Of a stretch of DNA of 64,000 bases, positions 4,091-62,738 are shown piece by piece; positions within the stretch are counted from its first letter, which is position 1, and every line of letters begins with the position of its first letter. The stretch covers positions 660 to 64,659 of the forward strand of contig DAOUBP010000038.1 of NCBI GenBank assembly GCA_034432655.1, written 5' to 3'. Below the pieces are notes generated by a model, which was not told the DNA's origin, did not search any database, and was given only the letters and a program-made list of their open reading frames with translations. Made by a program: the position numbers and the translations under genes. This DNA comes from Anaerolineae bacterium. Lineage in GTDB: Bacteria; Chloroflexota; Anaerolineae; CG2-30-64-16.

Positions 4091-5239
4091 CTACAAGGGG
4101 CATGTGAGCCGGCGCAGCGCGTCGGCCAGCACCTCGACCCCGCGCAGCCATTCGGCGATTTCCACGTGCTCCTCCGGCGTGTGGTCCAGGCTGCTGTCGC
4201 CGGGGCCATACGCCAGGATGGGGCAGTTCCAGACCGGGCCGACCACGTTCATGTCCGAGGTGCCGGTTTTGAGCAGGAAGTTGGGCGCGCCGCCCTGGCC
4301 CCGCACCGCTGCGACGAAGGCGCGCACCAGGGGCGTATTCTTCTCCGCCCGGTAGGCACGTTCTTCGCCGCTGAACCGGAATGTGCCGTTGCCATCCACG
4401 CTCACCAACAGCCGCTTGAAGGTCTCCGGTGTCACGCTCTCCGGCAAGCGGAACCCCATGCGCATCTCGGCGGTCTCCAACAAACCGTCGTCGCTGGAGG
4501 CAAAGTGTCGCAGCGACGGCTGCACCTGCTCCCAGACCCGTTCCCGGCCGGTATTCAGCTCCTCGACCAGCTCCTGCACCCGCCGCCAGTAGGCGAAGGC
4601 CATCTCCGGCGCGCTGGCGGCCGGCCCGGCTGTGTGGCTCATTAGGCGCTGGAACTCCACATCGGCCAGCAGACGGCCCTTGTAGCCCAGCGCCACACGC
4701 TGCCAGCCGGTCGGCTCGCCGATCACCACCATGTCCGGCTTGCGCCGCCGCGCCAGATGGCGCGCGCCTTTCGAGGTCGCGGCCTCTTCTTCTACCGCGC
4801 CGGCGATCACGATGCGCCAGCCGGGCTGCGGGCCCACCAGCGCCGCGGCCGTGGCGAACGCGGCCAGCGGCCCCTTTGCGTCCACCGCGCCGCGGCCGTA
4901 CAACCGCCCGCCGCGTTCGTGGACACGCGGGAACCCGCGCACCGTGTCAATGTGGCCGAGGAGGAGGAGTTCTTGCGGATTGCGTACTGCATACTGCGTA
5001 TTGCGTACTACGGATTGTGGATTGGGGATTGGTTCAGCTTCCAGCTTCCAGTTTCCAGCGCCCAGCACGCCGACCGCGTTGCCGGCCGCGTCGCGGTGGG
5101 CGGAGAAGCCGTGGTCGCGCAGCCAGGCGACCAGGTGCTCGACGGCCGGCCGTTCCTCGCCGGAGGGGGAGGGGATTTCGAGCAGTTCGCGCAACAGGCG
5201 CAGGCCGCTGGCGATGATGGCTTGGGAGGATTCCCTCAT
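4091..5239 (-). CDS. lysK: M20-family deacylase: [LysW]-lysine hydrolase LysK / acetylornithine deacetylase-like; contains an in-frame 28-aa insertion encoded by 12 tandem heptamers
   Basis: LLLGHIDTV, GRGAVDAKG, context at the end of the LysW-AAA cluster; start at MRESSQ with RBS gaggtg; insertion [27 protein letters not shown] = DNA 4975-5062. Confidence 0.7.
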   Translation of the reverse strand: MRESSQAIIASGLRLLRELLEIPSPSGEERPAVEHLVAWLRDHGFSAHRDAAGNAVGVLGAGNWKLEAEPIPNPQSVVRNTQYAVRNPQELLLLGHIDTVRGFPRVHERGGRLYGRGAVDAKGPLAAFATAAALVGPQPGWRIVIAGAVEEEAATSKGARHLARRRKPDMVVIGEPTGWQRVALGYKGRLLADVEFQRLMSHTAGPAASAPEMAFAYWRRVQELVEELNTGRERVWEQVQPSLRHFASSDDGLLETAEMRMGFRLPESVTPETFKRLLVSVDGNGTFRFSGEERAYRAEKNTPLVRAFVAAVRGQGGAPNFLLKTGTSDMNVVGPVWNCPILAYGPGDSSLDHTPEEHVEIAEWLRGVEVLADALRRLTCPL

Positions 5240-5322
5240 GGTACACCTCAGTTTTGGTCGTTGACTGGAGTCGAGGCTGTGCGAAGCCTCCTTTAGGATT
5301 AGCCGGTCTCTCTGTCCGGGCG

Positions 5323-6399
5323 TCAAAGCGCCTGAAGGCTCGATTCCGTTGTTCTCCTGATGATTTCATCCGTTACCTGATCCGTGCTGGCCCGTCCGCT
5401 CAGGTCGGGTGTGACGATGCCGGCAGCGACCGTGGCTTGCACCGCATGGCGGACGCGCGTCGCGGCCGCGGCCTGTCCCAGGTGATCCAGCAGCAGCGCG
5501 GCCGACAGGATCGCGCCGATCGGGTTGGCGATGCCGCGGCCGGCGATGTCGGGCGCGCTGCCGTGCACCGGCTCGAACACCGCGACCTGTCCTGCGCCCA
5601 CATTGGCCGACGGCGCTACGCCCAGCCCGCCCGCCAGCCCCGCGGCCAGGTCCGACAGGATGTCGCCGAAGAGGTTGGTGGTGACGATGACGTCGAAGCG
5701 GGTCGGGTCCTTCGCCAGCCACATCGCGGCCGCGTCCACCAGCAGCTCCTCGACCTGCACGTCCGGGTAGTCCCGCGCGACGGCCAGGCAGCTTTCCCGG
5801 AACAGGCCGTCGGTGAGTTTGAGGACGTTGGCTTTGTGGATAACGGTAACTTGGGGCCTGGTAGATTGGTAATTTGGTTCCAGAGATTGAACATTTGTGG
5901 TTTGCAGTTTGCGGTTTGCTCGTTGCCGTGCTTGCTCAAACGCCACTCTTGCGATGCGCTCGCTGGCCTGGCGGGTGATAACGCGCTCGACGATGGCGGT
6001 ATCGGGGTCCTCCCAACGCTCGCGGCCGCTGTAGAGGCCCTCGGTGTTTTCGCGCACGATGAGCAGGTCAATCGGCCGGCCGCCCGGCACCAATTGGACG
6101 GTCGGCCGCAGGTTGGCGTAGAGGTCGAAGTGGCGGCGCAGGGCCAGGATGGGGGAGCGGTAGCCTGCCACCTCTCCTGTTGTTGGCGACTGTGTAGCGC
6201 CGAACAGCGTCCCATCGGCCGCGGCCACGGCGCGCAGGGTCTCGTCGGGCAGGGCTGTGCCGCGGCGGAGGAAGCAGTCCCAGCCGGCATCGGCCTCGAC
6301 GAAGCGCACATCCGGCAGCACGGCCGCCAGCACGCGCGCCGCCGCGGGGATCACCTCCCGGCCGACGCCGTCGCCGGGGATCAGACAGATCGTTGGCAT
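5323..6399 (-). CDS. homoisocitrate / 3-isopropylmalate dehydrogenase family (beta-decarboxylating dehydrogenase), with in-frame repeat-encoded insertion
   Basis: [48 protein letters not shown]; ~24-aa insert [23 protein letters not shown] between ARQR and [10 protein letters not shown] encoded by heptamers ~5838-5925. Confidence 0.85.
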
Positions 6400-6466
6400 A
6401 GAGTCTTCGCTTTCAAAATGCTCATAGATTCCGGAACTCACCTGATCACGTATCACGCACCACGCC

Positions 6467-8506
6467 TCACGCCTCACGTCTCAACATCGCCAACAGCCCG
6501 CCCGCGTCCAAGATCGCCGCGACCGACGCGGAGAACGGCGGGAACGGGAATTCGCCGGCCGCGCAGGTCACAACGCCGCGGCCCAGGTCAATGCTGATGT
6601 GTGCACCGGGTTGGATAGCTGCAACCGCCTCGGGGCAGACGATGGGGAGGAGGCCGTTGTTGACAGCGTTTCGGAAGTAGATCCTTGCGAAGGACGCCGC
6701 AATGATAACCCGAATCCCCGCCGCGCGCAAACAGGTGACGGCCTGCTCACGACTGGAGCCGCAGCCGAAGTTGCGGCCGGCTACGATGATGTCGCCCGGT
6801 TGAACATTGGCCGCGAAGGTCGGGTCGAGGTCCTCCAGCGCGTGGCGGGCCATCTCGGCTTCTTCCTTGATGGTGTAGGTGTATTTGCCCGGGAAGATGA
6901 CGTCGGTGTTGACATCGTCGCCGTAGACCCAGGCGCGGCCGGAGAGGATGTTGGATGTTCGATGTTCGATGGACGATGGAGCGCGTTGCGTATTGCGTAT
7001 TGCGTACTTCGTATCTGGGGTAACCTTTTGTTCTGGAATCGAGGCTTTAGCCGGTTTCGTGGGCGAAGCAGTAGACCGGCTCACATCTCGATCCCAGTCG
7101 TCTTGATTCGGAATCGAGGCTTTAGCCGGTTTGGTGGATGAAGCATCTGACCGGCTAAGGCCTCGAGTCCAGTCGCGCAATTCCTCCATGTACGGGATCC
7201 GCCCCAGGGCCGCGCTGGCGGCGACGACCGCAGGGCTGGCCAGGTAGATCCGGGCGTCGGGGTTGCCCATGCGGCCGCGGAAGTTGCGGTTGGCGGTGCT
7301 GATGACGGTCTCGCCCGCGGCGGGGATGCCCAGGTGGTTGCCCATGCACGGGCCGCAGCCGGGCGTGCCGATCAGCGCGCCGGCTTCGAGGAAGGTCTGG
7401 ATGTAGCCCGCGGCCAGCGCATCCTGCAGCACCTGACTCGATGCCGGGACAACCAGCAACCGCGTGCCCGCGGCAACGCGGCGCACCCGTCCGTCCGGCC
7501 CGCGCAGTGCCGCGGCGGCCTCTGCCAGGTCCTCCAGCCGGCCGTTGGTGCAGGTGCCGATGAAGGCCTGGTGGACCGGGGTGCCCGCCACCTCGGACAG
7601 CGGCACGACGTTTGCGGGGTTGTGGGGCACGGCGACGACCGGCTCCAACGCGCTCAGGTCCACGGTATGACGGGCGATGTAGGGCGCGTCCGGGTCGGGG
7701 TAGAGCGCGAGCGCAGCAAGGTTCATAGGGACGACTTCAGTCGTCCCGCCGCGCTCGGAACGGCTGAAGCCGTTACGACGAACTGCCAACCGTTCCGCCA
7801 GCCACGCGAACACCGCCTCGTCCGGTTCCAGGTACGCGCTTTTCGCGCCCGATTCGGCCAGCAGGTTGGGGAGCACCATCCGGCTCTCGATGCTCAGCGC
7901 CCGCAGCCCCGGCCCGCCGATCTCGATGGCCCGGTAGATGCCCGCCTCGGGGCCGAGCAGCTTCAGCAGCCACAGGCCCAGGTCTTTGGCGGTGACTCCG
8001 GGCCGCAGGCTGCCGATCAGGTCCACGCGGATCGTCTCCGGCACGCGCAGCCAGAGCTCGCCGGTGGCCCACAGCGCGGCAACCTCGCTGCGGCCGATGC
8101 CCGCGCCGAACGCGCCCAGCCAGCCGAAGTGCGTGGTGTGGCTGTCTGCGCCCAGGATGAGCTGGCCGGGCAGCACCAGCGCCTCCTCGCTGAGCACCTG
8201 ATGGCAGATGCCCCGGCCGACGTCGAAGAAGTGCGTGATGCCCTGCTCGGCCACAAAGCGGCGCACCTCGGCGTGGTTCTGCGCGTGCTCGGCCGTGGGC
8301 GCGGGCACGGCGTGATCCAGGGTGATGGCCAGCCGCTCCGGGTAGCGCACCCGGTCGCGCCCCAGGCTGCGGAAGAGCCGGGCGATAGCTGCGGTGTTGT
8401 CGTGGCTCAGCACGATGTCGGGCCGGGCGTCCACGATCTGGCCGATGGCCGCGTGCGGCAGCCCCGCCGCGCGGGCCAGGGCTTTTTGGGCAAAAGTTTG
8501 TGACAT
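6467..8506 (-). CDS. homoaconitase / 3-isopropylmalate dehydratase large subunit and small subunit read as one ORF, joined in-frame by a ~80-aa repeat-derived linker
   Basis: N-part [15 protein letters not shown]...SHTTHFG...GTCTNGR...GCGPCMG (large subunit); C-part [19 protein letters not shown]...[11 protein letters not shown] (small subunit); no stop and no ATG/GTG/TTG start between them; linker DNA 6950-7200 = heptamers + two palindromic elements. The 40 codons upstream of ATG 8506 (to 8626) lie in a palindromic repeat and were excluded. Confidence 0.7.
6950..7034. repeat. tandem heptamers (ATGTTGG/ATGTTCG/ATGGACG... then GCGTATT/GCGTACT) inside leuC-leuD linker
   Basis: direct reading, period 7. 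Confidence 0.7.
7035..7169. repeat. two tandem copies of a ~60-bp palindromic MITE/REP-like element GGAATCGAGGCTTTAGCCGGT-N19-ACCGGCTAAGGCCTCGAGTCC (third copy at 62678-62738)
   Basis: 16-bp inverted arms; copy A right arm degenerate; lies in-frame inside the leuCD ORF. Confidence 0.7.
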
Positions 8507-8537
8507 GCAACGCCTTTCTGATTCATGCGCAGGGTCA

Positions 8538-8607
8538 GCATCCTCAGATGCGGTTTTCGGGCAAAGCCGTTCGCATCGGGGGCAAAGCCGTTCGCATCTG
8601 AGGATGC
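8538..8607. repeat. palindromic element: GCATCCTCAGATGCG ... CGCATCTGAGGATGC with internal direct repeat GCAAAGCCGTTCGCATC x2
   Basis: perfect 15-nt inverted arms; same family as 1713-1777. Confidence 0.65.
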
Positions 8608-8643
8608 TCACTCCACAATCTACCAATTTACCAGGTTACCAAC

Positions 8644-9792
8644 CTACCCATGTATCCCGTTCGCCCAATTTCGCAACAGGTTATCCACGTCGTCCAAGGT
8701 CAGGGCGCGTTCGTCGGCCAAAGCCTTGATATGCTGCGTCAGCTTCTTGACCTTGGCGTCGGTCAGCTCCAGGCCGAGCTGGTCGGCGCGGGCTTTCACC
8801 GCGTTCCAGCCGGTGAGCCGGTGTGCGATGGAGATGTAGCGGGTCAGGCCGAAGTCGTGCGGGTCCAGCGCCTCGTAGGTCTCCGGTGCGTTGAGCAGCG
8901 CCTTGGCGTGGATGCCGGCCTTGTGGGTGAACGCGCTGTAGCCGGTGATCTGGTTGTTGAACGGGATGTCCACGTTCACCATCTCGGCCACCATCATCTC
9001 CAGCGCCCGCAGCCGCTCGAGCCGGTACTTGCGCCGGGTAGCCTCCCGGTCGTAGGTGTACATGCGGGCCACGAAGCCACCCAGCGACGGGATGCCGTTG
9101 CGCTCGCCGATGCCCAGCACCGAGGTGTCAATGTGCGTGGCGCCGGCCTCCAGCGCGGTGAACGCGTTGGCGATCGCGCAGCCGGAGTCGTTGTGGCCGT
9201 GGAACTCGATGTCGCAGCGGGTCAACCGGCGTAGCGTGCCCACCAGCCGGGCGACCTGGGTCGGCGTGGCGATCCCCACCGTGTCGGCGATGCCCAGCCG
9301 GTTCACCACCCCCAGCCTGTCCACCGCCAGGTAGACCCGCAACAGCTCGGCCTCGTCGCTGCGGAAGGAATCCTCGGTGCTGAAGCGCAGTTCGATGTCG
9401 GGCGCCTGCTGGCGGATCCACGGCAGCACGTCCGCGGCCAGATCAATGATCTCGTCAATGCTCTTGCCGTGGCTGAACTGGCGCAGCTTCGACGATGTGC
9501 CGATGACCACATCCACGCCGTCCACGCCGGCATCCAACGCGACCGCGGCGTCCTCCTTGTGGCAGCGGATGTGGGTCAGGACGCGGGCGCGCAGCCCCAA
9601 CCGGGCGACCGTGCGCAGGTCGGCCAGGCTGCCCGGCGACGCCTGCGGCGAGGTCAGTTCCAGGTATTCCACCCCGAACTCGTCCAGCGCCCGCGCGATG
9701 CGGATCTTCTGCTCGGTGGTGAACGCCGCGTTGATGAACTGTTCCCCTTCGCGAAGGGTAGAGTCTATGATGGCGTAGTTGTCCAGGGACAT
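8644..9792 (-). CDS. homocitrate synthase (LeuA/NifV-type; first step of the AAA lysine pathway)
   Basis: [42 protein letters not shown]; cluster context. Confidence 0.85.
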
Positions 9793-9994: not shown

Positions 9995-11212
9995 TCAAGT
10001 AAGTGCAGTTTCGATCGCCTCTGCCACCCGCTCCAAATCCTCCTCCTCGATCACCAGCGGCGGGAGGAGGCGGAGGACGGTGGCGCCGGCGGGGAGGGCG
10101 AGGACGCCCAGGGCTTGCAGCCGCTGCAGGATGGGCGTGACTTTGACCTTCAGCTCGATGCCGATCAGCAGGCCCAGGCCACGCACCTCGCGGATGAGCG
10201 GCGAGTTGATGGCGCGCAGGCGGGCTTGCATGTGCTCGCCCAGCCGCGCGGCGCGTTGGGGGAGGATTTCGGTTGTAATCGTATCAATCGCCGCCAGCGC
10301 GGCCGCGCAGGCCAGCGGGTTGCCGCCGAAGGTGCTGCCGTGGGTCATGGGGCGAATGCCGGCGACACGCGGCCCGATCAGGCAGGCGCCCATCGGCAGG
10401 CCGCCAGCCATGGACTTGGCGACCGTCATCAGATCGGGAGCCAGGCCATAGTGCTCGCAGGCGAACAGCCGGCCCGTGCGACCGAAGCCGGTTTGGATCT
10501 CGTCCAGGATCAGCAGCGCGCCCCGCTCCCAGCAGACGCGCTGCGCCGTCTCCAGGAACCCGGGCGTCGCCGGGTGGACCCCGCCTTCGCCCTGCACGAC
10601 TTCCAGCAGCACCGCGGCCGTCTGGTCGGTCACCGCCCGTTCCAGCGCCGCACTGTCGTTGAACGGGATGTGGCTGAAGCCGGGCACCAGCGGCTCGAAG
10701 GGCTGGCGGTACTCGCGGTTCCACGTCGCCGACAGCGCGCCCAGAGTGCGACCGTGGAAGCCGCGCATGGCCGCCACGATCCCGCTGCGGCCGGTGCTCA
10801 GCCGGGCGAACTTGATGGCCGCCTCCACCGCCTCCGCACCGGAGTTGCACAGGAACGCGCGCTCCAGCCCGGCCGGCGCGATCGCGGTCAGGCGGGCCAG
10901 CAGCTCGGCGCGGCGGTCGTTGTAGAAGATCTCCGGGCAGGAGATGAGGGTGGCTGCCTGCCCGGCGATGGCCGCGACCACTGCCGGGTGCGCGTGGCCC
11001 AGGTTGGCCGCGCCCTGCCCGCCCACGCAGTCAATGTACTCCCGGCCCTCCGCGTCCCAGACCCGCGCGCCCTGTCCTCGCACGATCGCCAGCGGCCGCT
11101 TGGGGTAAACGCCGGAGGTGTGGCGCGATTCGAGGGAGAGGATGGTAGATTGGTAGGTTGGTAGATTGGTAGATTGGTAGGTTGGTGGGTGGATGGGACG
11201 AGTGTCAGTCAT
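9995..11212 (-). CDS. lysJ: class-III aminotransferase: [LysW]-aminoadipate semialdehyde / acetylornithine aminotransferase
   Basis: [45 protein letters not shown]; N-terminal ~30 aa ([22 protein letters not shown]) is encoded by the GGTAGRTT octamer array so the true start is uncertain. Confidence 0.8.
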
Positions 11213-11310
11213 GGGAGACCTCCCCCAATTCACCAAGTCCCAATCTACCAGTTCCTACTTTACCAACCCCCAATTTACCAACTTCCACTGTGCCAATCAC
11301 AGTCCCCTCC
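11140..11310. repeat. octamer array GGTAGATT/GGTAGGTT (11140-11195) and an inverted copy (11225-11310) spanning the lysZ stop / lysJ start junction
   Basis: direct reading; the two arrays are reverse complements and can pair. Confidence 0.65.
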
Positions 11311-12098
11311 CCGGCCAGCGCGGCGCGCACCGGGTGCGGGCGACGGGAGTCGGCCAGGATGACGGCGGGGACGCCGCCGGCCAGGGCCTCGCGGGCGGCC
11401 AGCAGCTTCTTCTTCATGCGGCCCTGGGCCAGGCCTTCGACCGCGTCCAGGTGAGAGGGCGCCACGTGGCGCACCAGGCTGCTTTCGTCCGGGAAGTTCG
11501 CCAGCAGGCCGGGCACGTTGCTGAGGATGATCAGCGCGCCGGCCCCTAGCGCGACCGCCAGCGCCGCCGCGGCCCGGTCGCCGTCCACGTTGAGCCGCTC
11601 GCCCTGCGCGCCCAACGCCAGCGGCGCGATGACCGGGGTGTAGCCGGCGCCCAGCATCAGCCGCAGCAGGTCGCCGTTGGCCGTTTCGAGCTGGCCGGTG
11701 TAGTCGTCACGGATGATCCGCTGCCGGCCGTTTTCCACCGCGCGCACCGCGTCCTTCCGCCGGGCCACCAGCAGCCGGCCGTCCACGCCCGACAGCCCGA
11801 CCGCGTTGCAGCCCAGCGCCTGGAGCCGGGCCACCAGCGCCTTGTTCACCTGCCCGGCCGCGGCCGCCACGTAGAGCTCCAGCATCTCCGGGTCGGTGTA
11901 GCGGCTGACGTGGCCCGAGGGCGAGGTGATGTGCCGCACCGGCACGCCCGCTCGCGCGGCCAGCGCATCGGCCGCGGCCGACGTGCCGTGCACCAGCACG
12001 ACCGGCCAACCCTCGGCCGCCAGCCCCGCGCTATCTGCCAGCACGGCGTCGGCATCCACCCCCGCCGCGCCGCCGAGTTTGATGATGATGGGATACAT
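11205..12098 (-). CDS. lysZ: [LysW]-aminoadipate kinase / acetylglutamate kinase family
   Basis: MYPIIIKLGG...VLVHGTSAA...; C-terminal tail [26 protein letters not shown] is repeat-encoded and overlaps lysJ start. Confidence 0.8.
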   Translation of the reverse strand: MYPIIIKLGGAAGVDADAVLADSAGLAAEGWPVVLVHGTSAAADALAARAGVPVRHITSPSGHVSRYTDPEMLELYVAAAAGQVNKALVARLQALGCNAVGLSGVDGRLLVARRKDAVRAVENGRQRIIRDDYTGQLETANGDLLRLMLGAGYTPVIAPLALGAQGERLNVDGDRAAAALAVALGAGALIILSNVPGLLANFPDESSLVRHVAPSHLDAVEGLAQGRMKKKLLAAREALAGGVPAVILADSRRPHPVRAALAGEGTVIGTVEVGKLGVGKVGTGRLGLGELGEVSHD

Positions 12099-12197: not shown

Positions 12198-13253
12198 CTA
12201 TATCGGGTGCAGTCCTGTAGACTTCAACCCAGCCGTTTCGTCCAGCCCGCACATCAGGTTCATGCACTGCACCGCGCTGCCGGCCGCGCCTTTGCCCAGG
12301 TTATCAATGGCGGCCAGGGCCACCAGGCGGCCGGTGGCCGGCTCCAGCTCCCAGCCGACGTCGGCCAGGTTCGTGCCGGCCAGCAGCTTCGGCTCCGGGT
12401 GGCGGTAGATGCCGCCCCGCTCGTGGACGATGCGCACGAACGGCTCCTGGCCGTAGGCCGCGCGGTAGGCCCGCCAGAGGTCTTTGTCGCTCAGGCCGGG
12501 CTGCACCCACGCGTGCGCGGTCGCCAGCACCCCGCGCACCAGCTCGATCGAGGTCACCGACAGATGCACATCTCCGATCCCCAACACCTGCCGCACCTCG
12601 GCCTGGTGGCGGTGGCCGGTGGGCGCGAAGGAGCGCACCGCGCCGGCCCGCTCCGGATGATGCGACGCCGCGTTCGCGGCCGCGCCCCCCTCGGACGACC
12701 CTGCCTTCACGTCCACGATCACCGGTCGGTCGGCCCGCAGCAGCCCGGCCCGGACCAGCGGCAGCAGCGCCAGGACGGCGGCGGTCGCGTTGCAGCCGAC
12801 GCCGGAAGCATATTGCGTACTGCGTATTGCGTCGCGGTTGGCTTCGGGGAGGCCGTAGGTGAAGCGTGAGAGCCAGTCGGGGGCGGCGTGGGGTTCGCCG
12901 TAGGTGGCTTGATAGGTTTGCGGGTCGGAGAGGCGGAAGTCGGCGGAGAGGTCAATGATGCGGGGGGCGAGGCGGGCAAAGTGCTCGATGCGGCGCTGGG
13001 CCTGGCCGTGGGGCAGCGCCAGGAACAGCACGTCGCACGGGGCCAGCTCGCTGAGGGCCGTGAAGCGTATGGGCGGGATCCGGCCGCCCACGGGCCGCAG
13101 GTTGGGGTGCAGGCTGTGCACGTACTCGCCCGCGTGCGACTCGGAGGTCACCTGCGCCAGCTCGACGGCCGGGTGGCCCAACAGCAGCCGGATCAGCTCG
13201 CCCCCGCCGTAGCCGGAGCCGCCGACGATGGAGACGCGGAGGGGGGCGGTCAT
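12198..13253 (-). CDS. lysY: N-acetyl-gamma-glutamyl-phosphate reductase family: [LysW]-aminoadipyl-phosphate reductase
   Basis: [32 protein letters not shown] (active-site Cys region), NLGKGAAG; in-frame RSTQYA insertion from heptamers at ~12805-12840. Confidence 0.85.
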
Positions 13254-14212
13254 GGGCGGGCCTCCGGGGTGGTATTGCGTATTGCGTATTGCGTACTGCT
13301 TGCCGTTGAATGAGCAGTTCTCTCATGGTCTACGCAGTATGCAGTACGCAGTACGTACTCTGCCACCCGCGCCGGGATATCCACCCCCGTCGTGTGAATG
13401 CTGTTGCGGAACTCCATGGTGTGGTTCACCTCGTTGACCAGGAAGCCGCGATCGGGGTCTTCCAGCACGTCAATCGCGAGGACGCCGCCGCCCACGGCTG
13501 CCGCGGCCCGGCGGCAGAGGTCGTCCAGCTCCGGCGTCACCGGGCAGTTGGAGGCCTGGCCCCCGCGCGCGGTGTTGGTGATCCAGTGCGTCGAGCCCCG
13601 GTAGATCGCCGCGATGGTCTCGTCGCCCACGACGAAGGCGCGGATGTCGCGGCCGGGCTTGCGGATGTATTCCTGGATGTAGAAGATGCTGTGCAGGTAG
13701 TTGCCCAGCACCTCCTTGTGTTCCAGGATCGCCTCGGCCGCGTCCCGGTCGTTGATGCGGGCCAGCAGTCGGCCCCACGAGCCGACCAGCGGCTTGAGCA
13801 CGACCGGGTAGCCCAGTTCTTCGATGGCTTGCAAGGCCGCTTCGGGGGTGAAGGCCACGCGCGTGCGAGGCTGCGGGATGCCGGCCTCGGCCAGCGCCGC
13901 GCTGGTCAGCAGCTTGTCCCAGCACGTGGCCGCGGTGCGATAGGTGTTGACCGTGGGGATCCCGGCCGCCTGGAGCAGCCGCAGCGCATAGATGCCGCGT
14001 GCCGCGCTGACGGAGCGCTCGAGGACGATGTCGGCGCGGATGTTGTAGGGCGAGATTCCATCTCGCCCCACCGGCAGCACCAGCTCATCATCGTTTACCA
14101 GCTGCACCGTCGCGCCGGTGGCTTCCAGCGCGGCCAGCAGCAGCTTCTCCTCCACGCGGATGCGGGAGACGATCATCGCGACGGTGATCTGGGAGTGACC
14201 GTTCTTGCTCAT
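13250..14212 (-). CDS. lysX: RimK-type ATP-grasp ligase: alpha-aminoadipate--LysW ligase
   Basis: ATP-grasp motifs ([27 protein letters not shown]); start MSKNGHS 4 nt overlapped with lysW stop; C-terminal ~30 aa ([27 protein letters not shown]) repeat-encoded. Confidence 0.8.
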
Positions 14213-14379
14213 TCGCCCCAATCCTCCGCCTCTTCCGGCGCCAGGTCGAGGACCAGTGGGTCCAGCGACACCACCTCCAGCTCCGCGCCGCACGCCGGGC
14301 ACGGCACGATCTCCCCCTGCAACGGGTCGCGCAGGGTCACAGGACCTTCACATTCTGGACAGAGTGCTTCGCGTGACAT
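14209..14379 (-). CDS. lysW: LysW amino-group carrier protein (zinc-ribbon, C-terminal EDWGE)
   Basis: [16 protein letters not shown]...[10 protein letters not shown]...EEAEDWGE; perfect RBS aggagg 8 nt upstream; ORF-track ORF (to 14517) extended upstream through repeats by a TTG start. Confidence 0.85.
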
Positions 14380-14907: not shown

Positions 14908-15003
14908 CGGGGGCGGATGGGAGTCGAACCCACCTTGGACGCTTCCTAGGCGCCCATCACCGGTTTTGAAGACCGGGGCCGCCACCGGACGACAACCACC
15001 CCC
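14908..15003 (-). tRNA. selC: tRNA-Sec (selenocysteine), anticodon UCA, 96 nt, 8/5 acceptor/T-stem architecture with long variable arm
   Basis: GGGGGTGG-TT-GTCGTCCGGTGGCGGC-C-CCGGT-CUUCAAA-ACCGG-[26-nt variable arm]-GTGGG-TTCGACT-CCCAT-CCGCCCCC-G; aligns block-for-block with E. coli selC (TCGTCTCCGGTG..., CTTCAAA, TTCGACTCC). Confidence 0.85.
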
Positions 15004-15069: not shown

Positions 15070-15222
15070 GAATAAATAAAATACTGCGTACTACTTACTG
15101 CGTATTGAGTGCTTCATGCGATCGCTCGCGCAATGTTTGTACGGAGTATGCAGTACGGAGTATGCAGTACGGAGTATGTAGTACGGAGTATGCAATACGG
15201 AGTATGTAGTACGGAGTTCGCC
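15070..15222. repeat. tandem GTACGGAGTATGCA(G/A) 14-mer (2x7) repeats upstream of AmrS gene
   Basis: direct reading. Confidence 0.75.
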
Positions 15223-16245
15223 ATGTCCCACCCCGCCATTCTCTGGGAACGACTGGGGCCCGACGACCTGCGGGTCCGCTGCAATCTGTGCGCGCACCAT
15301 TGTGTGATCGCGCCGGGCAAATTGGGGGTCTGCTGTGTGCGGGAGAACGTGGACGGCGAGTTGGTGACGCTGGTCTACGGTCGGGCGATTTCGCAACATG
15401 TAGATCCCATCGAGAAGAAACCGCTGTTCCATTTCCAGCCGGGCAGCAAGTCATACTCCATCGCCACGGTCGGCTGTAACTTTCAGTGTGCCTTCTGTCA
15501 GAACTGGGAGATCTCGCAGATGCCGCGTGAGGAGGGCGCCGTCATGGGGCGCTTCGTTGCCCCGGCTGAGGTCGCGCGCGCGGCCCGGCAGGCCGGCTGC
15601 GCTTCGGTGGCCTACACCTACACGGAGCCGACTATCTACGCCGAGTACGCGCTGGACTGTGCGCGGGAGGCGCAGAAATTGGGGCTGCGTAACGTGTTCG
15701 TCAGCAACGGCTATATGACGCCGGCGTTACTTGAGTTGATGGCGGGCCTGATTGACGGCATCAATGTTGACCTGAAGGCCGGCCGGGGCGAGTTCTACCG
15801 CAAGATATCGGGCGCGGGGTTGAAGGCCGTGTTGGAGAACCTGGTGCGCATCCACAAGTTGGGCATCTGGCTGGAGGTGACGACCCTGGTGATCCCCGGC
15901 CTCAATGACTCAGATGAGGAGCTGCGTTGGGCCGCGCGTTATCTGTACGACAACCTGGGGCCTGATGTGCCGTGGCATATCAGCCGCTTTTACCCGCACT
16001 ACAAGATGAGCGATGTGCCGCCCACCCCTGCCAAGACGCTCGAGCGTGCCTGGCAGATCGGCCGGGACGTGGGCCTGCACTACGTCTATGTGGGCAACCT
16101 GCCCGGCCATCACGCCGAGAGCACCTTCTGCCCTGGCTGCGGCGGCCTGGTCATCGAGCGCAGCGGCTACTGGCTCGGCCGGCGCAACCTGCGGGACGGC
16201 AAGTGCACTGCGTGCGGGACGGTCATCGCCGGCGTGGAGATGTGA
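15223..16245 (+). CDS. AmmeMemoRadiSam-system radical SAM enzyme (PflA-like)
   Basis: CNLCAHHCVI...CxxxC..C; VGCNFQCAFCQNWEIS; C-terminal CPGCGG...CTACG; adjacent AMMECR1 gene. Confidence 0.8.
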   Translation: MSHPAILWERLGPDDLRVRCNLCAHHCVIAPGKLGVCCVRENVDGELVTLVYGRAISQHVDPIEKKPLFHFQPGSKSYSIATVGCNFQCAFCQNWEISQMPREEGAVMGRFVAPAEVARAARQAGCASVAYTYTEPTIYAEYALDCAREAQKLGLRNVFVSNGYMTPALLELMAGLIDGINVDLKAGRGEFYRKISGAGLKAVLENLVRIHKLGIWLEVTTLVIPGLNDSDEELRWAARYLYDNLGPDVPWHISRFYPHYKMSDVPPTPAKTLERAWQIGRDVGLHYVYVGNLPGHHAESTFCPGCGGLVIERSGYWLGRRNLRDGKCTACGTVIAGVEM

Positions 16246-16294
16246 GGGCGCGTGGCAAAATACGCAATGCGCAATACGGAGTGCGCAGCACTCG

Positions 16295-16825
16295 CTACTC
16301 GTATTTCTCAACCCGAAACCGGAACATCTCCACCGGCTCATCATCCCGCAGCCCGGCCTTGCGCCGCGCATACCACAGCTGGGTCTTCACATCGTCTATG
16401 CCCTCGATGTCCGGCAGCAGCAGGCCGCGCTGCCAGCCCCGCTGCACGATCACGCCGTAGCGCTTGGGGTCGAGTTCTGTTTCCGAAGTGATCCGCTCCG
16501 GCGGGTAAAGCACGCTTACGTCAATTTTGAGATCGTCCAGCTCTTCAGGCCGCACCGGCGGGAAGCGCGGATCGCGCGTGGCCGCGGCGATGGCGTTGTT
16601 GATCACCTCCTGCGCCAGCGATTTCTCGGTCGCGGTGATGGTGCCGATGCAACCGCGCAGCTCGCCGGTGCTTTTGGTGTGCAAAGTGACGAAGACCCCG
16701 GCCGGCTCGCCTTCGATGGGCGCCGGGGCCTCTGCTGGCTTCAGTTTTCTGCCCTCGCGCACGTAACGCTCGATGGCCGCGCGGGCCAGTTGGACGAGAG
16801 GGTGATGGGTGGGTTGGGTGGACAT
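16295..16825 (-). CDS. AMMECR1-domain protein (AmmeMemoRadiSam system protein A)
   Basis: GVFVTLHTKSTGELRGCIGTI...LLLPDIEGIDD pattern typical of AMMECR1. Confidence 0.75.
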   Translation of the reverse strand: MSTQPTHHPLVQLARAAIERYVREGRKLKPAEAPAPIEGEPAGVFVTLHTKSTGELRGCIGTITATEKSLAQEVINNAIAAATRDPRFPPVRPEELDDLKIDVSVLYPPERITSETELDPKRYGVIVQRGWQRGLLLPDIEGIDDVKTQLWYARRKAGLRDDEPVEMFRFRVEKYE

Positions 16826-18258: not shown

Positions 18259-19338
18259 TTATCTGATGAGCAATCCCGTCGGATCAATTTCCCTCAAGAT
18301 CCTTCGTTCCTCCTCCGTCGGCGCGGCGGTGACGGCCAGCGGCTCGGCCACCGGGATCGGGAAGCTGCTGTTGGCCTGGATCTCCTCCACGGTGACGCCG
18401 GGGTGAACGGCCAATAGATACATGGTCCTGGTCGCTTCGTCGAAGCCGTAGACGCCCAGCTGCGTGATCACCCGATAGGGGCCGGTGTTCGCCGGCAGCC
18501 CTGCGCGCTCACGTGCGCCCGGACCGGTCAGATAGCCTGGGGTGGTGATAAAGTCCAGCTTCTCGGCGAACTTACGGCGGTCCTGGCGCATGATGATGAT
18601 GGTGCGATGGCAGGCCGAGCCTACGTCATTTGCCCCGCCGCTGCCGGGCAATCGGACCGTAGGGTGCTCCCAATCGCCGATCACGGTGGTGTTGATGTTG
18701 CCGTACGGGTCAATCTGCGCGGCGCCCAGGAAGCCGTAGTCCAGATGGCCGGCCTGGGCCATGGACATCACGTCGTGCATGCTCGAGGCGGCCACAGCCT
18801 GATGGAAGGTGCGCGAATCGCCCACGGAGATGGGCAGCACCGGGATGTGGGGGCCGATGCCGCCGGCTTCGAAGATAATCAACAGGCCCGGCGCGTGGGT
18901 GCGCTGCGCCAGCATGGCGGCGATCATAGGCAGCCCTGTGCCGACGAACACTGATTTACGGTCTTCCAGCAGGTGTGCCGCGACACAGGCGAGCAGCTCG
19001 GTGGAGGAATAAGGAGACGTGGAAGCAGGGAGACGCGAAGATTCTCCGCGTCCCCGCGTCTCCGCCTCCCCGTGTCCCCGCGTCCCCGCGTCCCCGCGTC
19101 CCCACGTCTCCGCCTCCCCGTGTCCCCGCGTCTCCGCGTCCCCGTGTCCCCGCGTCTCCGCGTCCCCGTGTCCCCGCGTCCCCGCGTCCCCGTGTCCCCG
19201 CGTCTTCGCGTCTCCGCGTCCCCGCATCCCCGCGTCCCCGTGTCCCCGCGTCTCCGCCTCCCCGCGTCCCCGCGTCTCCGCCTCCCCGCGTCCCCGCGTC
19301 TCCGCGTCCCCGCGCGCCTGCATCATCGGATCCTCCAT
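18259..19338 (-). CDS. CoA-transferase subunit B (glutaconate/3-oxoacid CoA-transferase beta-like) with ~80-aa N-terminal extension encoded by the TCCCCGCG octamer array
   Basis: VFVGTGLPMIAAMLAQRTHAPGLLIIFEAGG, AQIDPYGNINTTVIGD, GSGGANDVGS; no in-frame ATG/GTG/TTG between the repeat and the conserved domain. Confidence 0.7.
   Translation of the reverse strand: MEDPMMQARGDAETRGRGEAETRGRGEAETRGHGDAGMRGRGDAKTRGHGDAGTRGHGDAETRGHGDAETRGHGEAETWGRGDAGTRGHGEAETRGRGESSRLPASTSPYSSTELLACVAAHLLEDRKSVFVGTGLPMIAAMLAQRTHAPGLLIIFEAGGIGPHIPVLPISVGDSRTFHQAVAASSMHDVMSMAQAGHLDYGFLGAAQIDPYGNINTTVIGDWEHPTVRLPGSGGANDVGSACHRTIIIMRQDRRKFAEKLDFITTPGYLTGPGARERAGLPANTGPYRVITQLGVYGFDEATRTMYLLAVHPGVTVEEIQANSSFPIPVAEPLAVTAAPTEEERRILREIDPTGLLIR
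19016..19320. repeat. ~37 tandem octamers TC(C/T)CCG(C/T)G
   Basis: direct reading, period 8; translates as (R/G)GDAETRG in CoA-transferase B frame. Confidence 0.85.
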
Positions 19339-19703: not shown

Positions 19704-19912
19704 CCCTCCTCTCCGCGTCCCCGCGTCTCCGCGTCCCCGCGTCTCCGCGTCCCCGCGTCCCCGCGTCCCCGCGTCTCCGCGTCCCCGCGTCTCCGCGTCC
19801 CCGCGTCCCCGCGTCCCCGCGTCTCCGCGTCTCCGCGTCTCCACGTCCCCGCGTCTCCGCGTCTCCGCGTCCCCGCGTCCCCGTGTCTCCGCGTCTCCGC
19901 GTCTCCGCGTCT
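19704..19912. repeat. ~26 tandem octamers TC(C/T)CCGCG (same family and orientation as 19016-19320)
   Basis: direct reading. Confidence 0.85.
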
Positions 19913-19914
19913 CC

Positions 19915-20901
19915 TCACGCCCTGAGCGCCTCGACCTCTCGCAGATAATCCAGCCGTTCCCGACCTCCTATCTTCTCCAGGTATGCCTCGAAGTCGGGCA
20001 CCCCGAAGACGAACTCCTCGAAATACTCGGCTGCGCCTGCCGCAGTTTTTGAGCGCTGCATCCAGGAGCGAATATGGTCTTCGTCGAAGTAGTAAAGCCG
20101 TGGCATCTGACAGGGATGGCTGCCGAAGGGCACTTCCACCACTGCGTCCACCAGATGGTAAGGGATGACCGTGCGCCAGGGTGTTTCCCGGATCTGTGCT
20201 TCGGGGATGATCTGCTCGGTGGTGAGGATCAGACGGCGGGCCGCGCGCGCCAGCTCGAAGTCCTCGATGATGGTGCCGTCAATCTGCGCGTTGCCGTACA
20301 TATCGCACCGGGTCACGTGGATGAAAGCGACGTCGGGGTAACAGGCGGGCAGCAGGCAGATCGGCTTGCCGCTCCACGGATCGCGCACCACCTTGGCCGA
20401 GCTGTGGGCCAGGGTGTCGGTGCCCAGCAAGCTGCGGGTAGGGATGAAGGGCAGGCCCATGGCCGCGGCCAGGAAGCGCCACTGGTAACCGGCGTTGCTG
20501 GTCTCGGCCACCACGCGGCAGTGGCCCTCTTCCACCATGCGCCGCGAGGCAGGGGAGAGGCCGCGCAGCTCGTGTCCGAAGGTGTACGCCACCTCGACCC
20601 GATCCACGCAGCCGGACGCAATGAGGATGTCGCCGTCGTGCACGGCCGTCTTGCCGGCCAGTGTCAGATGACGCTTGCGCTGGCGGATGATCTCGTAGAT
20701 GACGGCCATGCTCACGCGCACATGGCCGAAGCCGCCGGAGGCGATCAAGGCACCGTCGGGCACAAAACGCGCCACCGCCTCGGCCACCGTCATGCGCTTG
20801 TCACGCAGGTCCCGGGATTTGTTCTTCAGCACCCATTCCCGGTTCTCATCCGGGTCGTGCCAGCCGATCAGCTCGCCGTGGCCTTCTTGCAAGAGCTCCA
20901 T
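19915..20901 (-). CDS. CoA-transferase subunit A (glutaconate CoA-transferase alpha-like)
   Basis: family-level similarity over whole length; strong RBS ggaggtg upstream of ATG 20901. Confidence 0.7.
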   Translation of the reverse strand: MELLQEGHGELIGWHDPDENREWVLKNKSRDLRDKRMTVAEAVARFVPDGALIASGGFGHVRVSMAVIYEIIRQRKRHLTLAGKTAVHDGDILIASGCVDRVEVAYTFGHELRGLSPASRRMVEEGHCRVVAETSNAGYQWRFLAAAMGLPFIPTRSLLGTDTLAHSSAKVVRDPWSGKPICLLPACYPDVAFIHVTRCDMYGNAQIDGTIIEDFELARAARRLILTTEQIIPEAQIRETPWRTVIPYHLVDAVVEVPFGSHPCQMPRLYYFDEDHIRSWMQRSKTAAGAAEYFEEFVFGVPDFEAYLEKIGGRERLDYLREVEALRA

Positions 20902-26331: not shown

Positions 26332-26931
26332 CTAGTCCTCCCGGCCGGGCAAAGGATCTTCACCTGGGTGCGGCGTCACTCCACTTTCATCCCGGCCGTC
26401 GGGGCTGGCCCCGGAACCCGGCTCCGCACCAGGGGGCGACATCTGCCCGCTTTCATCCAGGGCGTCGGGGCTTGCCCCAACCTCCTCGACCCCGGGGCTG
26501 GCCCCGGAACCCGGCTCCGCACCAGGGGGCGACATCCGCCCGCTTTCATTCAGGGCGTCAGGGCTTGCCCCAACCTCCTGGACCTCGCGGCTGGCCCCGG
26601 AACCCGGCTCCGCACCAGGGGGGGTCGTCAATTCGCGCATGACCGAATCGCGGATCGCCCGGCCGGGGTCGCGGGCGGCCATGGCCAGCGCGGTGGCATC
26701 TTTGGCAACTTCCTTGATCTCTTCCAGCGGGCGGCTGATCTCCTGGTCAGGGTCCAGCGCCTGGCGCGCCTTCTCCAGCTCGCGCGAGAACTCGCGCGTC
26801 GCTTTGCGCATCTGCCGCATGCTCCTGCCAAGCTTCGCGCCGATTTCCGGCAGCTTATCGGGGCCAAAAACGGCTAGCGCCAGGATCAGGATGATGATCA
26901 GTTCAAACGGCCCGATTCCGAGAATTTCCAC
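26332..26931 (-). CDS. tatA: Sec-independent translocase TatA/TatB with long acidic/Pro-rich repeat tail
   Basis: MEILGIGPFELIIILILALAVFGPDKLPEIGAKLGRSMRQMRKA. Confidence 0.85.
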   Translation of the reverse strand: MEILGIGPFELIIILILALAVFGPDKLPEIGAKLGRSMRQMRKATREFSRELEKARQALDPDQEISRPLEEIKEVAKDATALAMAARDPGRAIRDSVMRELTTPPGAEPGSGASREVQEVGASPDALNESGRMSPPGAEPGSGASPGVEEVGASPDALDESGQMSPPGAEPGSGASPDGRDESGVTPHPGEDPLPGRED

Positions 26932-61547: not shown

Positions 61548-62645
61548 ATGAAAGTCTATCGTGTGTTCTCTGCATTGGTGGTGCTGGCGATGTTGCTCGG
61601 CGCCTGCGCTGCGCCTGCCGCGCCCACCCAGGCGCCCGCCCAACCGGCCGCGCCGACAATGGCGCCTGCTGCGCCGGCCGAAGCCACCCAGGCGCCGGCT
61701 GCGGCCGCGCCGAAGGAAATGTGTACGCCGGCGGACGAGGCGACGGTGAAGCCGGTGGCTCAGAAGCCGGCGAAGCCGATGAAGATTGCGGTGTTGGGGT
61801 TGGAGAACAACCCGTTCTGGATTCCGGTGAAGGAAGGTGCGCTGAAGGCGGCCGAGGAGTTGGCGCCGTACGGCGTGACGGTCGAGTGGATCGTGCCTGG
61901 GGATCAGCACACCAGCGAGGTGTTTGGCCAGGCGGTCGAGTCGGCGATCGTGAAGAAGTACGATGCGATTGCGACGGTGGCCGGTGATGCGGGCATGGTG
62001 CCGTTCATCAACAAGGCGGTAGATGCGGGCATTCCGGTGGCGACCTTCAACTCGGAGACGGCGGAGCCGAACAAGCGGCTGTTCTTTGTAGGGGCCGACC
62101 TGTACCTGCAAGGACAGACGGCGGGCAAGGCGATGGCCGAGGCGATCGGCGGCAAGGGCAAGGTGGCGATCATCACCGGCTTCTTTGCGGTCGAGGCGCA
62201 CGAGTTGCGGCGCAAGGGCTTTGAGGATGTGATCAAGCAGAACTATCCGGACATCACCATCCTGCCGCCGGTGGAGAACCAGGACAAGGCCGACATCGCC
62301 TTTGCCCAGGCCAAGGACTTCATGACGGCGAATCCGGACCTGGCTGGCATCTACGTGACGGCGGGTGGGCCGTTCGGTGCGGCGAAGGCGGTGGAAGAAG
62401 CGGGGATGACGGGCAAGGTCAAGGTGATCTCGTTCGACTTCGTGGATGAGACGATGGAGTTCGTGCAGAAGGGCGTCATCTCGGCCACCATCGGCCAGGA
62501 CCCCTTCGCCCAGGGCCATGACCCGGCCATCCGGCTCTACAACTACCTGGTGGGCAATGTGCAGCCGGAGTGCGTCAAGCTCGTCACTCGCGCTGACCTG
62601 GTCACCAAGGATAACATTGACCAGTTCTGGAAACCGAGCAAGTAA
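61548..62645 (+). CDS. ABC sugar transporter substrate-binding lipoprotein
   Basis: lipobox LLGAC, Ala/Pro-rich linker, periplasmic-binding fold (KIAVLGLEN..., VVAGDAG). Confidence 0.85.
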   Translation: MKVYRVFSALVVLAMLLGACAAPAAPTQAPAQPAAPTMAPAAPAEATQAPAAAAPKEMCTPADEATVKPVAQKPAKPMKIAVLGLENNPFWIPVKEGALKAAEELAPYGVTVEWIVPGDQHTSEVFGQAVESAIVKKYDAIATVAGDAGMVPFINKAVDAGIPVATFNSETAEPNKRLFFVGADLYLQGQTAGKAMAEAIGGKGKVAIITGFFAVEAHELRRKGFEDVIKQNYPDITILPPVENQDKADIAFAQAKDFMTANPDLAGIYVTAGGPFGAAKAVEEAGMTGKVKVISFDFVDETMEFVQKGVISATIGQDPFAQGHDPAIRLYNYLVGNVQPECVKLVTRADLVTKDNIDQFWKPSK

Positions 62646-62677: not shown

Positions 62678-62738
62678 GGAATAGAGGCTTTAGCCGGTCA
62701 GCTTGTCAACATCAGAAACCGGCTAAAGCCTCGAATCC
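62678..62738. repeat. palindromic MITE/REP-like element GGAATAGAGGCTTTAGCCGGT-N19-ACCGGCTAAAGCCTCGAATCC (same family as 7035-7169)
   Basis: 21-bp inverted arms. Confidence 0.75.

Follow-up and report, generated by a model that had tools for sequence, protein, structure and literature searches.

A fused gene for a predicted homoaconitase with a repeat-filled linker in the lysine operon of an Anaerolineae bacterium

The DNA analysed here (hereafter the window) is a stretch of 64,000 nucleotides from the Anaerolineae bacterium assembly GCA_034432655.1 (Chloroflexota; contig DAOUBP010000038.1, positions 660 to 64,659), and it carries a gene in which hacA and hacB, for the large and small modules of a predicted homoaconitase, are joined by a linker within one open reading frame (ORF). 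Counted from the ATG at 8504-8506, the gene measures 2040 nt including its stop codon and yields a product of 679 amino acids that is 100% identical to the NCBI-sourced protein P0001. The frame itself (6467..8626, minus strand) reaches 719 codons if counted from an upstream TTG, and the ATG, which is preceded by GAAAGG and opens the sequence MSQTF..., is likely the start of the conserved protein. Both halves of the product are recognized by Pfam, as Aconitase (PF00330, 307 bits) and Aconitase_C (PF00694, 74 bits).

Against the NCBIfam models, residues 4-437 match TIGR01343 (hacA_fam) with 459 bits for a cutoff of 386, and residues 523-677 match TIGR02087 (LEUD_arch) with 170 bits for a cutoff of 109. 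In a family alignment of 23 sequences, the three cysteine ligands of the [4Fe-4S] cluster (C319, C384 and C387), the GSSRE motif of the small module (G583, S584, S585, R586, E587) and about 250 further positions are invariant, and because of this conservation both modules look functional. The large module is thus of the HacA/LeuC type by its family cutoff and its three cysteine ligands, and the small module of the HacB/LeuD type by its family cutoff and GSSRE. What separates the protein from a classical heterodimeric homoaconitase (HACN) or isopropylmalate isomerase (IPMI) is that the subunits are not separate polypeptides: one stop-free ORF encodes both, here and likewise in relatives. A preliminary description of the locus had read a large and a small subunit in a single 2040-nt frame, with the large module ending in ...GRIPYMEEL and a given sequence at the start of the small one. 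This observation was correct in every detail, as the ORF 6467-8506 has no internal stop and both domains score above cutoff; only the strand (minus) had gone unstated.

The linker has a GC content of 0.54, against about 0.72 in the flanking coding sequence (CDS). It is free of stop codons, and its only canonical in-frame start codons are ATG440 and TTG443, at its very beginning, and GTG475. The 48 codons that precede the small module hold no canonical start, and near residue 523 no convincing Shine-Dalgarno (SD) sequence was seen, in agreement with the earlier remark that neither a stop nor a plausible start separates the modules. An open frame across the linker was retained in 6% of dinucleotide shuffles, with an extra factor of 1/3 for the correct phase.

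That the linker is translated repeat DNA was also borne out: it consists of two heptamer arrays and a tandemly repeated palindromic element, and measures 85 residues. The array next to the small module includes GATGTTC x3.6 at 6947-6971, and the TTGCGTA array has no stop in any of the six frames. The palindromic part is a 75-nt unit repeated 1.9 times (7035-7175), each unit holding a ~65-nt hairpin whose stem is 21-23 bp long and whose arms are GGAATCGAGGCTTTAGCCGGT / ACCGGCTAAAGCCTCGATTCC. The two copies, at a spacing of 75, are 79% identical, and one arm of copy A is degraded. Neither type of repeat is expected by chance, the arm pattern having 5 matches in the window (0.01 expected), which make 3 elements, and the TTGCGTA dimer 42 (0.17 expected). 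The (GGCGTGA)n array at the 3' end of the fused gene is the opposite of the stop-free linker arrays, in that it presents a TGA in every frame.

The genes around the fused gene (Table 1) make up a complete LysW-type alpha-aminoadipate (AAA) lysine operon, the genomic association expected of a homoaconitase of this pathway. The fused protein is therefore identified as the homoaconitase of the AAA lysine pathway, its catalysis being predicted from genomic context. None of the equivalog-level models HacA_Meth, HacB_Meth and PRK14023 reaches its cutoff with the fused protein.

Table 1. Coordinates of the fused gene, its parts, the associated repeats and the lys operon genes in the window
Feature	Position	Strand	Remarks
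Fused homoaconitase gene hacA-linker-hacB	6467..8506	minus	679 codons + TGA stop at 6467-6469
Large module, aconitase domains 1-3, residues 1-437	7196..8506	minus	NCBIfam TIGR01343 hacA_fam and PDB 4KP2 HacA matches
Second in-frame repeat insertion, in large module, residues 242-262	7721..7783	minus	Hairpins AACGGCTTCAGCCGTT and GGGACGACTGAAGTCGTCCC
Interdomain linker, 85 residues, residues 438-522	6941..7195	minus	Predicted disordered; hypervariable in family alignment
Palindromic element copy B	7108..7172		Arms 7110-7130 + 7150-7170, 19-nt loop, -34.2 kcal/mol, z = -5.9
Palindromic element copy A	7033..7097		Tandem 75-nt duplicate of copy B, -31.7 kcal/mol, z = -5.2
Heptamer array TTGCGTA x4.1	6986..7014		Coding strand TACGCAA, read YAIRNTQ
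Heptamer array GATGTTC/GATGGAC	6947..6978		Coding strand CATCGAA/CATCGTC, read SSIEHRTSN; adjoins small module
Small module, aconitase domain 4, residues 523-679	6470..6940	minus	NCBIfam LEUD_arch and PDB 2PKP + 3VBA matches
Heptamer array GGCGTGA (coding strand)	6445..6483		Holds stop codon of fused gene; spacer to homoisocitrate dehydrogenase gene
Spacer 5' of fused gene, to homocitrate synthase gene	8507..8643		21-nt direct repeat x2 (8559-8600) within 19-bp inverted repeat (8534-8552 / 8593-8611)
Third palindromic element copy	62678..62738		-33.4 kcal/mol, z = -6.1; intergenic, ABC-transporter operon
LysX	13250-14302	minus	TIGR02144 above cutoff
ArgC/LysY-type reductase	12198-13253	minus	
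[LysW]-aminoadipate kinase LysZ	11205-12098	minus	PRK14058.1-1 above cutoff
LysJ-type transaminase	9995-11212	minus	LysJ is best match
Homocitrate synthase	8644-9792	minus	TIGR02146 above cutoff
Homoisocitrate/isopropylmalate-type dehydrogenase	5323-6402	minus	HICDH is best match
[LysW]-lysine hydrolase LysK	4091-5326	minus	PRK04443 above cutoff

An AlphaFold2 model built from the 23-sequence alignment has two confident modules (predicted template-modelling score, pTM, 0.76) arranged like those of monomeric aconitase, and residues 451-517 of the linker are predicted to be disordered (predicted local distance difference test, pLDDT, 27-43). The large module superposes on M. jannaschii HacA (PDB 4KP2) and on LeuC with template-modelling scores (TMt) of 0.89-0.90, the small module on HacB and LeuD structures (PDB 2PKP, 3VBA) with TMt 0.86-0.88, and the whole model on mitochondrial aconitase with TMq 0.72-0.73. 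Judging from this model, the protein most likely works as an aconitase-type enzyme with the order 1-2-3-linker-4, in which domain 4 (the 'swivel'), flexibly tethered, would close over the active site with its cluster.

The fusion is widespread among relatives. A search of a collection of 5.8 billion proteins returned homologues from Anaerolineae, Caldilineales and Chloroflexota metagenome-assembled genomes (MAGs), and 117 of the best 120 matches combine the two Pfam domains in a single chain (603-887 amino acids). Among GTDB species representatives, the modules are fused in frame, with no intervening stop, at 17-22 loci, and the best representative is 73% identical. The nearest relatives are fused (L002-L011, L016, L020-L024, L033 and L034, plus L001 at 83% identity), and so is L007, in the class of about 65% identity, which has a GC-rich linker devoid of repeats. 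In more distant Anaerolineae (Caldilineaceae, Thermoflexales, Ca. Amarolinea, Litorilinea), the two genes are distinct and 37-260 nt lie between them, and in some the small subunit is encoded elsewhere. The fusion is old, inherited and common to many related Chloroflexota. The preliminary description was right to propose a genuine single-ORF fusion of a usually heterodimeric enzyme, which in its view was mediated by repeats; the fusion is neither recent nor genome-specific, as a large clade has it. It had also named two findings that would overturn it. As to the first, sister strains with a clean stop and start between the genes, the nearest GTDB loci and L001 are fused in frame; the second, a sequencing error, is ruled out by fused relatives whose sequences are independent.

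The same comparison bears on the more general concern that a repeat collapse or an indel in the assembly conceals a real stop and start. Repeat arrays are indeed prone to assembly errors, and one related locus (L032) looks broken in its heptamer arrays, yet independent assemblies of many species are fused in frame with differing linker lengths, and neither here nor in the relatives does the small module have a start codon. We consider such an artefact scarcely credible.

How often the fusion arose was addressed with a bootstrapped neighbour-joining (NJ) tree of the concatenated modules, the only tree method used. It contains two fused groups with many unfused lineages between them. Clade A, to which the window belongs, is grouped with the unfused L035 in 88% of bootstraps, and within the second fused clade (B) the groups B2 and B1 reach 97% and 70%. 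Because NJ never joins clades A and B (0-2% of bootstraps for the two as one group), the tree indicates at least two independent fusions, with the exact count provisional, and a single origin of all fused forms was rejected on the same figure.

We put at roughly 80% the probability that the gene encodes a genuine, inherited single-polypeptide homoaconitase in which the [4Fe-4S] large module is tethered to the small module by a disordered linker of unconstrained sequence, and we infer that the chain is made and active as one polypeptide. Several points weigh on the other side. The linker, with its 85 disordered residues, could undergo post-translational cleavage, and a separate hacB or leuD outside the 64-kb window could serve the large module. 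Nearly all the relatives are MAGs. Clade A without L035 has only 14% bootstrap, which leaves the placement of L035 relative to it uncertain, and as the tree is NJ only, how many fusions and fissions took place, and in which direction, can be stated only provisionally. Finally, L032 could be taken for an unfused member of clade A. We rejected it as a true one, as its large module is short of the last ~16 residues and the locus breaks off amid inverted heptamer arrays; L032 is probably misassembled or else a pseudogene.

If the modules are conserved, the linker is not. In 101 fused proteins in which both boundary motifs could be located, it is hypervariable, with a length of 45-275 amino acids (median 66), and often consists of translated 7- or 8-nt arrays: 20 of the 101 linkers repeat with a period of exactly 7 residues, which marks them as translated heptanucleotide arrays, 6 have an 8-residue periodicity, and 3 contain the palindrome peptide. 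The palindromic element sits at an orthologous site, directly behind the ...MEEL/KDL that closes the large module, in the window, L202 (78% identity) and L203, and its insertion is therefore older than their divergence; L202 has in addition a 21-nt insertion in one arm of the element. L001, a closer relative than L202, carries GAATCAGC octamer arrays at the same site, and the heptamers adjoining the small module are common to the window, L001 and L202 in differing copy numbers. Since the element is orthologous in three species while L001 has octamers in its place, the present repeats represent turnover within an existing linker. In the window, the ancestral palindromic element was later duplicated in tandem (75 nt, or 25 codons). 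The linker behaves like a spacer, being low in GC and colonised by the 7-8-nt arrays and hairpin elements of operon junctions, and selection on it appears limited to a length that is a multiple of three and the lack of stop codons.

These data also speak to the possibility of a recent fusion confined to this genome, in which repeats would have inserted or expanded between separate hacA and hacB genes and removed the stop and start codons. The repeats of the linker do belong to the same families as those of intergenic spacers, and there are unfused relatives whose repeat-laden spacers lie one mutation away from fusion. We nevertheless find a recent origin very improbable, since fused relatives extend down to ~65% identity, some with non-repeat linkers, clade A (with L035) is recovered at the bootstrap given above, and the element is shared by three species while the closest relative is equally fused with different repeats.

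A more serious alternative is that one ORF yields two polypeptides acting as a classical heterodimer, either by internal initiation (for instance at GTG475 or at some non-canonical codon) or by proteolysis of the linker. The in-frame GTG at residue 475 would be available for this, the predicted disorder would expose the linker to proteases, and the strong hairpins could pause ribosomes. The absence of a canonical start from the 48 codons before the small module, and of a convincing SD sequence, argues the other way, and independent initiation needs no open frame, yet the frame is kept in more than 100 variants with unrelated linkers. Nor is the RNA structure of the linker conserved. A conserved structure that would act in pausing or internal initiation was tried as a candidate and rejected: z is below -3 in 4 of 17 fused linkers (and in 0 of 17 upstream-CDS controls, by dinucleotide shuffles), and L001 has z = +0.2. 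A scan of the hairpin element and linker against Rfam gave nothing at the gathering threshold and only chance-level matches (E >= 0.14). The hairpins of the linker are a by-product of the inserted element. Overall we judge it unlikely that two polypeptides are made, and the suggestion in the preliminary description that the small subunit initiates at a non-canonical codon within a structured RNA finds no support, given the missing start and SD, the unconserved structure and the conserved frame. All linker variants compared keep the frame open, and conservation of frame and openness across dozens of lineages is what would be expected from selection on read-through translation of a single polypeptide.

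Unfused relatives offer candidate precursor states. In L035, which is sister to or nested in clade A, the large subunit ends ...EEDAQWEA-TGA and the ATG of the small subunit overlaps it by 14 nt, so that shifting the frame by a single base would join them. In the unfused L012, the large subunit closes with a single TAA; beyond it comes a spacer of heptamers, in frame and free of stops, which leads into ATG-CTC-ATC-TCC-GGC-CGC (MLISGRAW), at which point the window reads AAC-ATC-CTC-TCC-GGC-CGC (NILSGRAW). Only one stop lies between the modules in 10 of 20 same-frame unfused loci. Because unfused relatives show these one-stop and overlapping states at the same place, the linker corresponds in position to the former hacA-hacB intercistronic spacer. 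Fusion could have proceeded by loss of the upstream stop codon and read-through of a stop-poor spacer, or alternatively by a frame change at an overlapping stop and start. As unfused relatives have in-frame, stop-poor repeat spacers, it is plausible that repeats helped the original fusion; deep fused members such as L007, with GC-rich non-repeat linkers, mean that repeats cannot be claimed as its cause. A different arrangement is found in three Thermoflexus MAGs (L058, L065 and L076), in which hacA and hacB are ~1-1.2 kb apart and the gap, read in the hacA frame, resembles the reverse strand of another ORF, suggesting a gene inserted between the subunit genes.

In sequence and fold, both modules are closest to the heterodimeric homoaconitases and isopropylmalate isomerases (Thermus LysT/LysU, M. 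jannaschii HacA/HacB), with matches to HacA/HacB-type enzymes at E ~1e-95 to 1e-100 for the large module and 6e-33 for the small one. The heterodimeric homoaconitases share the AAA lysine operon context and differ in consisting of two polypeptides from adjacent genes, where here one ORF includes an 85-residue linker. Published work on the aconitase superfamily recognizes three architectures, lists HACN as '1-2-3, 4' and classes the prokaryotic homoaconitase as heterodimeric; it takes fusion as an accepted route in the superfamily, and reports that artificially joined AcnX subunits kept their activity (PMC8184944). Mitochondrial aconitase, AcnA/IRP1 and fungal Lys4 have the same domain order and a covalent linker, and the alignment to them spans both modules; their linker is a structured, surface-packed segment, in contrast to the longer, disordered and unconserved one described here. 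Membership in these groups was considered and rejected: the protein scores 373.6 bits with the Lys4 model TIGR00139 (cutoff 529.9), 162 with TIGR01340 (aconitase_mito; cutoff 825) and 361 with PRK07229 (cutoff 612). The likeness to monomeric aconitases is best read as convergent, the fusion having arisen independently within Anaerolineae.

The repeats have known counterparts of their own. Rickettsia palindromic elements (RPEs) are, like the element in the linker, dispersed and mostly intergenic, and also occur in frame in unrelated ORFs to which they add a peptide (PMC10969869). RPEs are ~150 bp long, as opposed to ~65 nt for the present element, which is unrelated in sequence and host phylum, and RPE-type insertions lie within a domain, whereas this one lies in an interdomain linker. 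Intergenic heptanucleotide repeats are known in filamentous bacteria such as Beggiatoaceae (TAACTGA) and cyanobacteria (PMC4679880), where, including the cyanobacterial STRR, they likewise form many tandem 7-nt arrays at gene junctions. Here the units differ (TTGCGTA, GATGTTC and others) and several arrays are translated, in the linker, in loops and in terminal tails. Short tandem repeats and satellites are also unusually abundant in Chloroflexus (PMC6749651). In the literature we found no direct description of Chloroflexi heptamer repeats or of a fused bacterial homoaconitase. What is new is the combination of an aconitase-type covalent fusion with RPE-like in-frame repeat insertion, each kind being already known.

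The fusion itself is thus ordinary for the aconitase superfamily. It corrects the textbook picture of a prokaryotic homoaconitase that is always heterodimeric, as a large uncultured Anaerolineae clade has the fused form. Genes that overlap or adjoin, genes with an in-frame repeat spacer behind a single stop, and the fused gene form a clear series that illustrates how intercistronic repeats can become a linker, and the repeat families of these genomes are evidently tolerated in frame in essential enzymes. A practical consequence for annotation is that low-GC repeat islands in the ORFs of these MAGs should not be taken for frameshifts or pseudogenes. Such repeats may also be a mutational hazard, as slippage by one heptamer unit within the ORF would shift the small module out of frame.

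The window holds a third copy of the palindromic element outside the linker, between the gene for an ABC substrate-binding protein (ending at 62645) and the gene that follows. When metagenomes were scanned for the exact pattern, the element turned up in at least 120 contigs, and 80 loci (L082-L161) were examined. The consensus is TTGGAGTC(GA/CC)GGCTTTAGCCGGT - loop of 10-30 nt - ACCGGCTAAAGCC(TC/GG)GACTCCAA, and the two stem variants (..TCGA|GGC.. and ..TCCC|GGC..) change together on both arms, in a compensatory manner. Some copies start with TGTAGTCCC, most with TGGAGTC, and the flank consensus contained no conserved target-site duplication beyond the element stem. Nor was a partner transposase identified, no search aimed at one having been made. 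These properties are those of a multi-copy dispersed palindrome with a conserved stem, similar to MITE or REP elements. Most metagenome copies are intergenic; 4 of the 80 are clearly inside long ORFs of high GC3, in three unrelated genes (L085/L093, a histidine kinase in L105 and a membrane protein in L114), where they read ...GIEALAG...PAKAS.P or ...RGFSR...KPAKAS.P. The element therefore inserts in frame in unrelated ORFs as RPEs do, and the hac linker is a further case. The contigs carrying its core (GGCTTTAGCCGGT..ACCGGCTAAAGCC) come from lakes, soils and Baltic sediment, and as some have only 42-48% GC, the motif is not confined to one high-GC lineage.

In the leftmost 23 kb of the window, including the lys operon, almost every gene junction is filled by heptamer or octamer arrays. 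The idea that such repeats are selected to be stop-free was rejected: of the 21 different units of 7 or 8 nt, 15 contain no stop on either strand, where composition alone predicts 58% (P = 0.16). The large module of the fused protein holds a second in-frame repeat insertion, of which residues 246-254 have a pLDDT below 50; its site is hypervariable family-wide (alignment columns ~266-337), with unrelated insertions of 0-70 amino acids in relatives. We tentatively suggest, at somewhat short of even odds, that junction DNA made of 7-8-nt arrays and hairpins is routinely translated in this Anaerolineae lineage and continually supplies new protein sequence in linkers, in hot-spot surface loops of housekeeping enzymes and in terminal tails, turning over between species with only frame and openness kept. 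If true, translation of junction repeats would be a genome-wide bacterial counterpart of the RPE phenomenon, and subunit fusions would be unusually easy to reach.

Other genes of the operon have repeats within their coding sequences. Homoisocitrate dehydrogenase (5851-5925, minus) and LysK (4970-5062, minus) contain internal low-GC, in-frame islands of translated 7-nt repeats; L001 has different repeat-derived peptides at both sites, and its dehydrogenase carries one more insertion. At its C-terminus, LysX extends ~34 residues past the family profile in a tail (13253-13354, minus) made of two inverted heptamer arrays (VLRTAYCV ... STQYAIRNT), and its stop overlaps the ATG of LysY (ATGA), one frame change from another fusion. 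At 11135-11288 (minus), the C-terminal tail of LysZ (VGKLGVGKVGTGRLG, 15-nt repeats) and the N-terminus of LysJ (8-nt repeats) are mutually inverted arrays that flank the SD sequence of LysJ (GGGGGAGG) and its ATG, the latter overlapping the LysZ stop. A long hairpin formed by these arrays would place the LysJ start site in its loop.

Further features were seen elsewhere in the window. Just upstream of the lys operon lies a tRNA-Sec gene (14909-15003, minus; Rfam RF01852, 71.9 bits), the only gathering-level Rfam match in the window. An AmmeMemoRadiSam system occupies 15109-16825, with a radical SAM enzyme at 15109-16245 (plus) and protein A at 16295-16825 (minus), and the 5' end of the radical SAM ORF crosses a 14-nt array of 5.6 units (15139-15217). 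An octamer array, CCGCGTCC x33 (19046-19314), lies inside the 5' part of the ORF 18259-19338, and another, TCTCCGCG x25 (19710-19914), between that ORF and the ORF 19915-20901; neither ORF has an NCBIfam match. Finally, a 93-nt unit is repeated 2.4 times with 95% identity at 26400-26622, inside the ORF 26332-26931 (minus), and because its period is a multiple of 3 it is probably a coding repeat.

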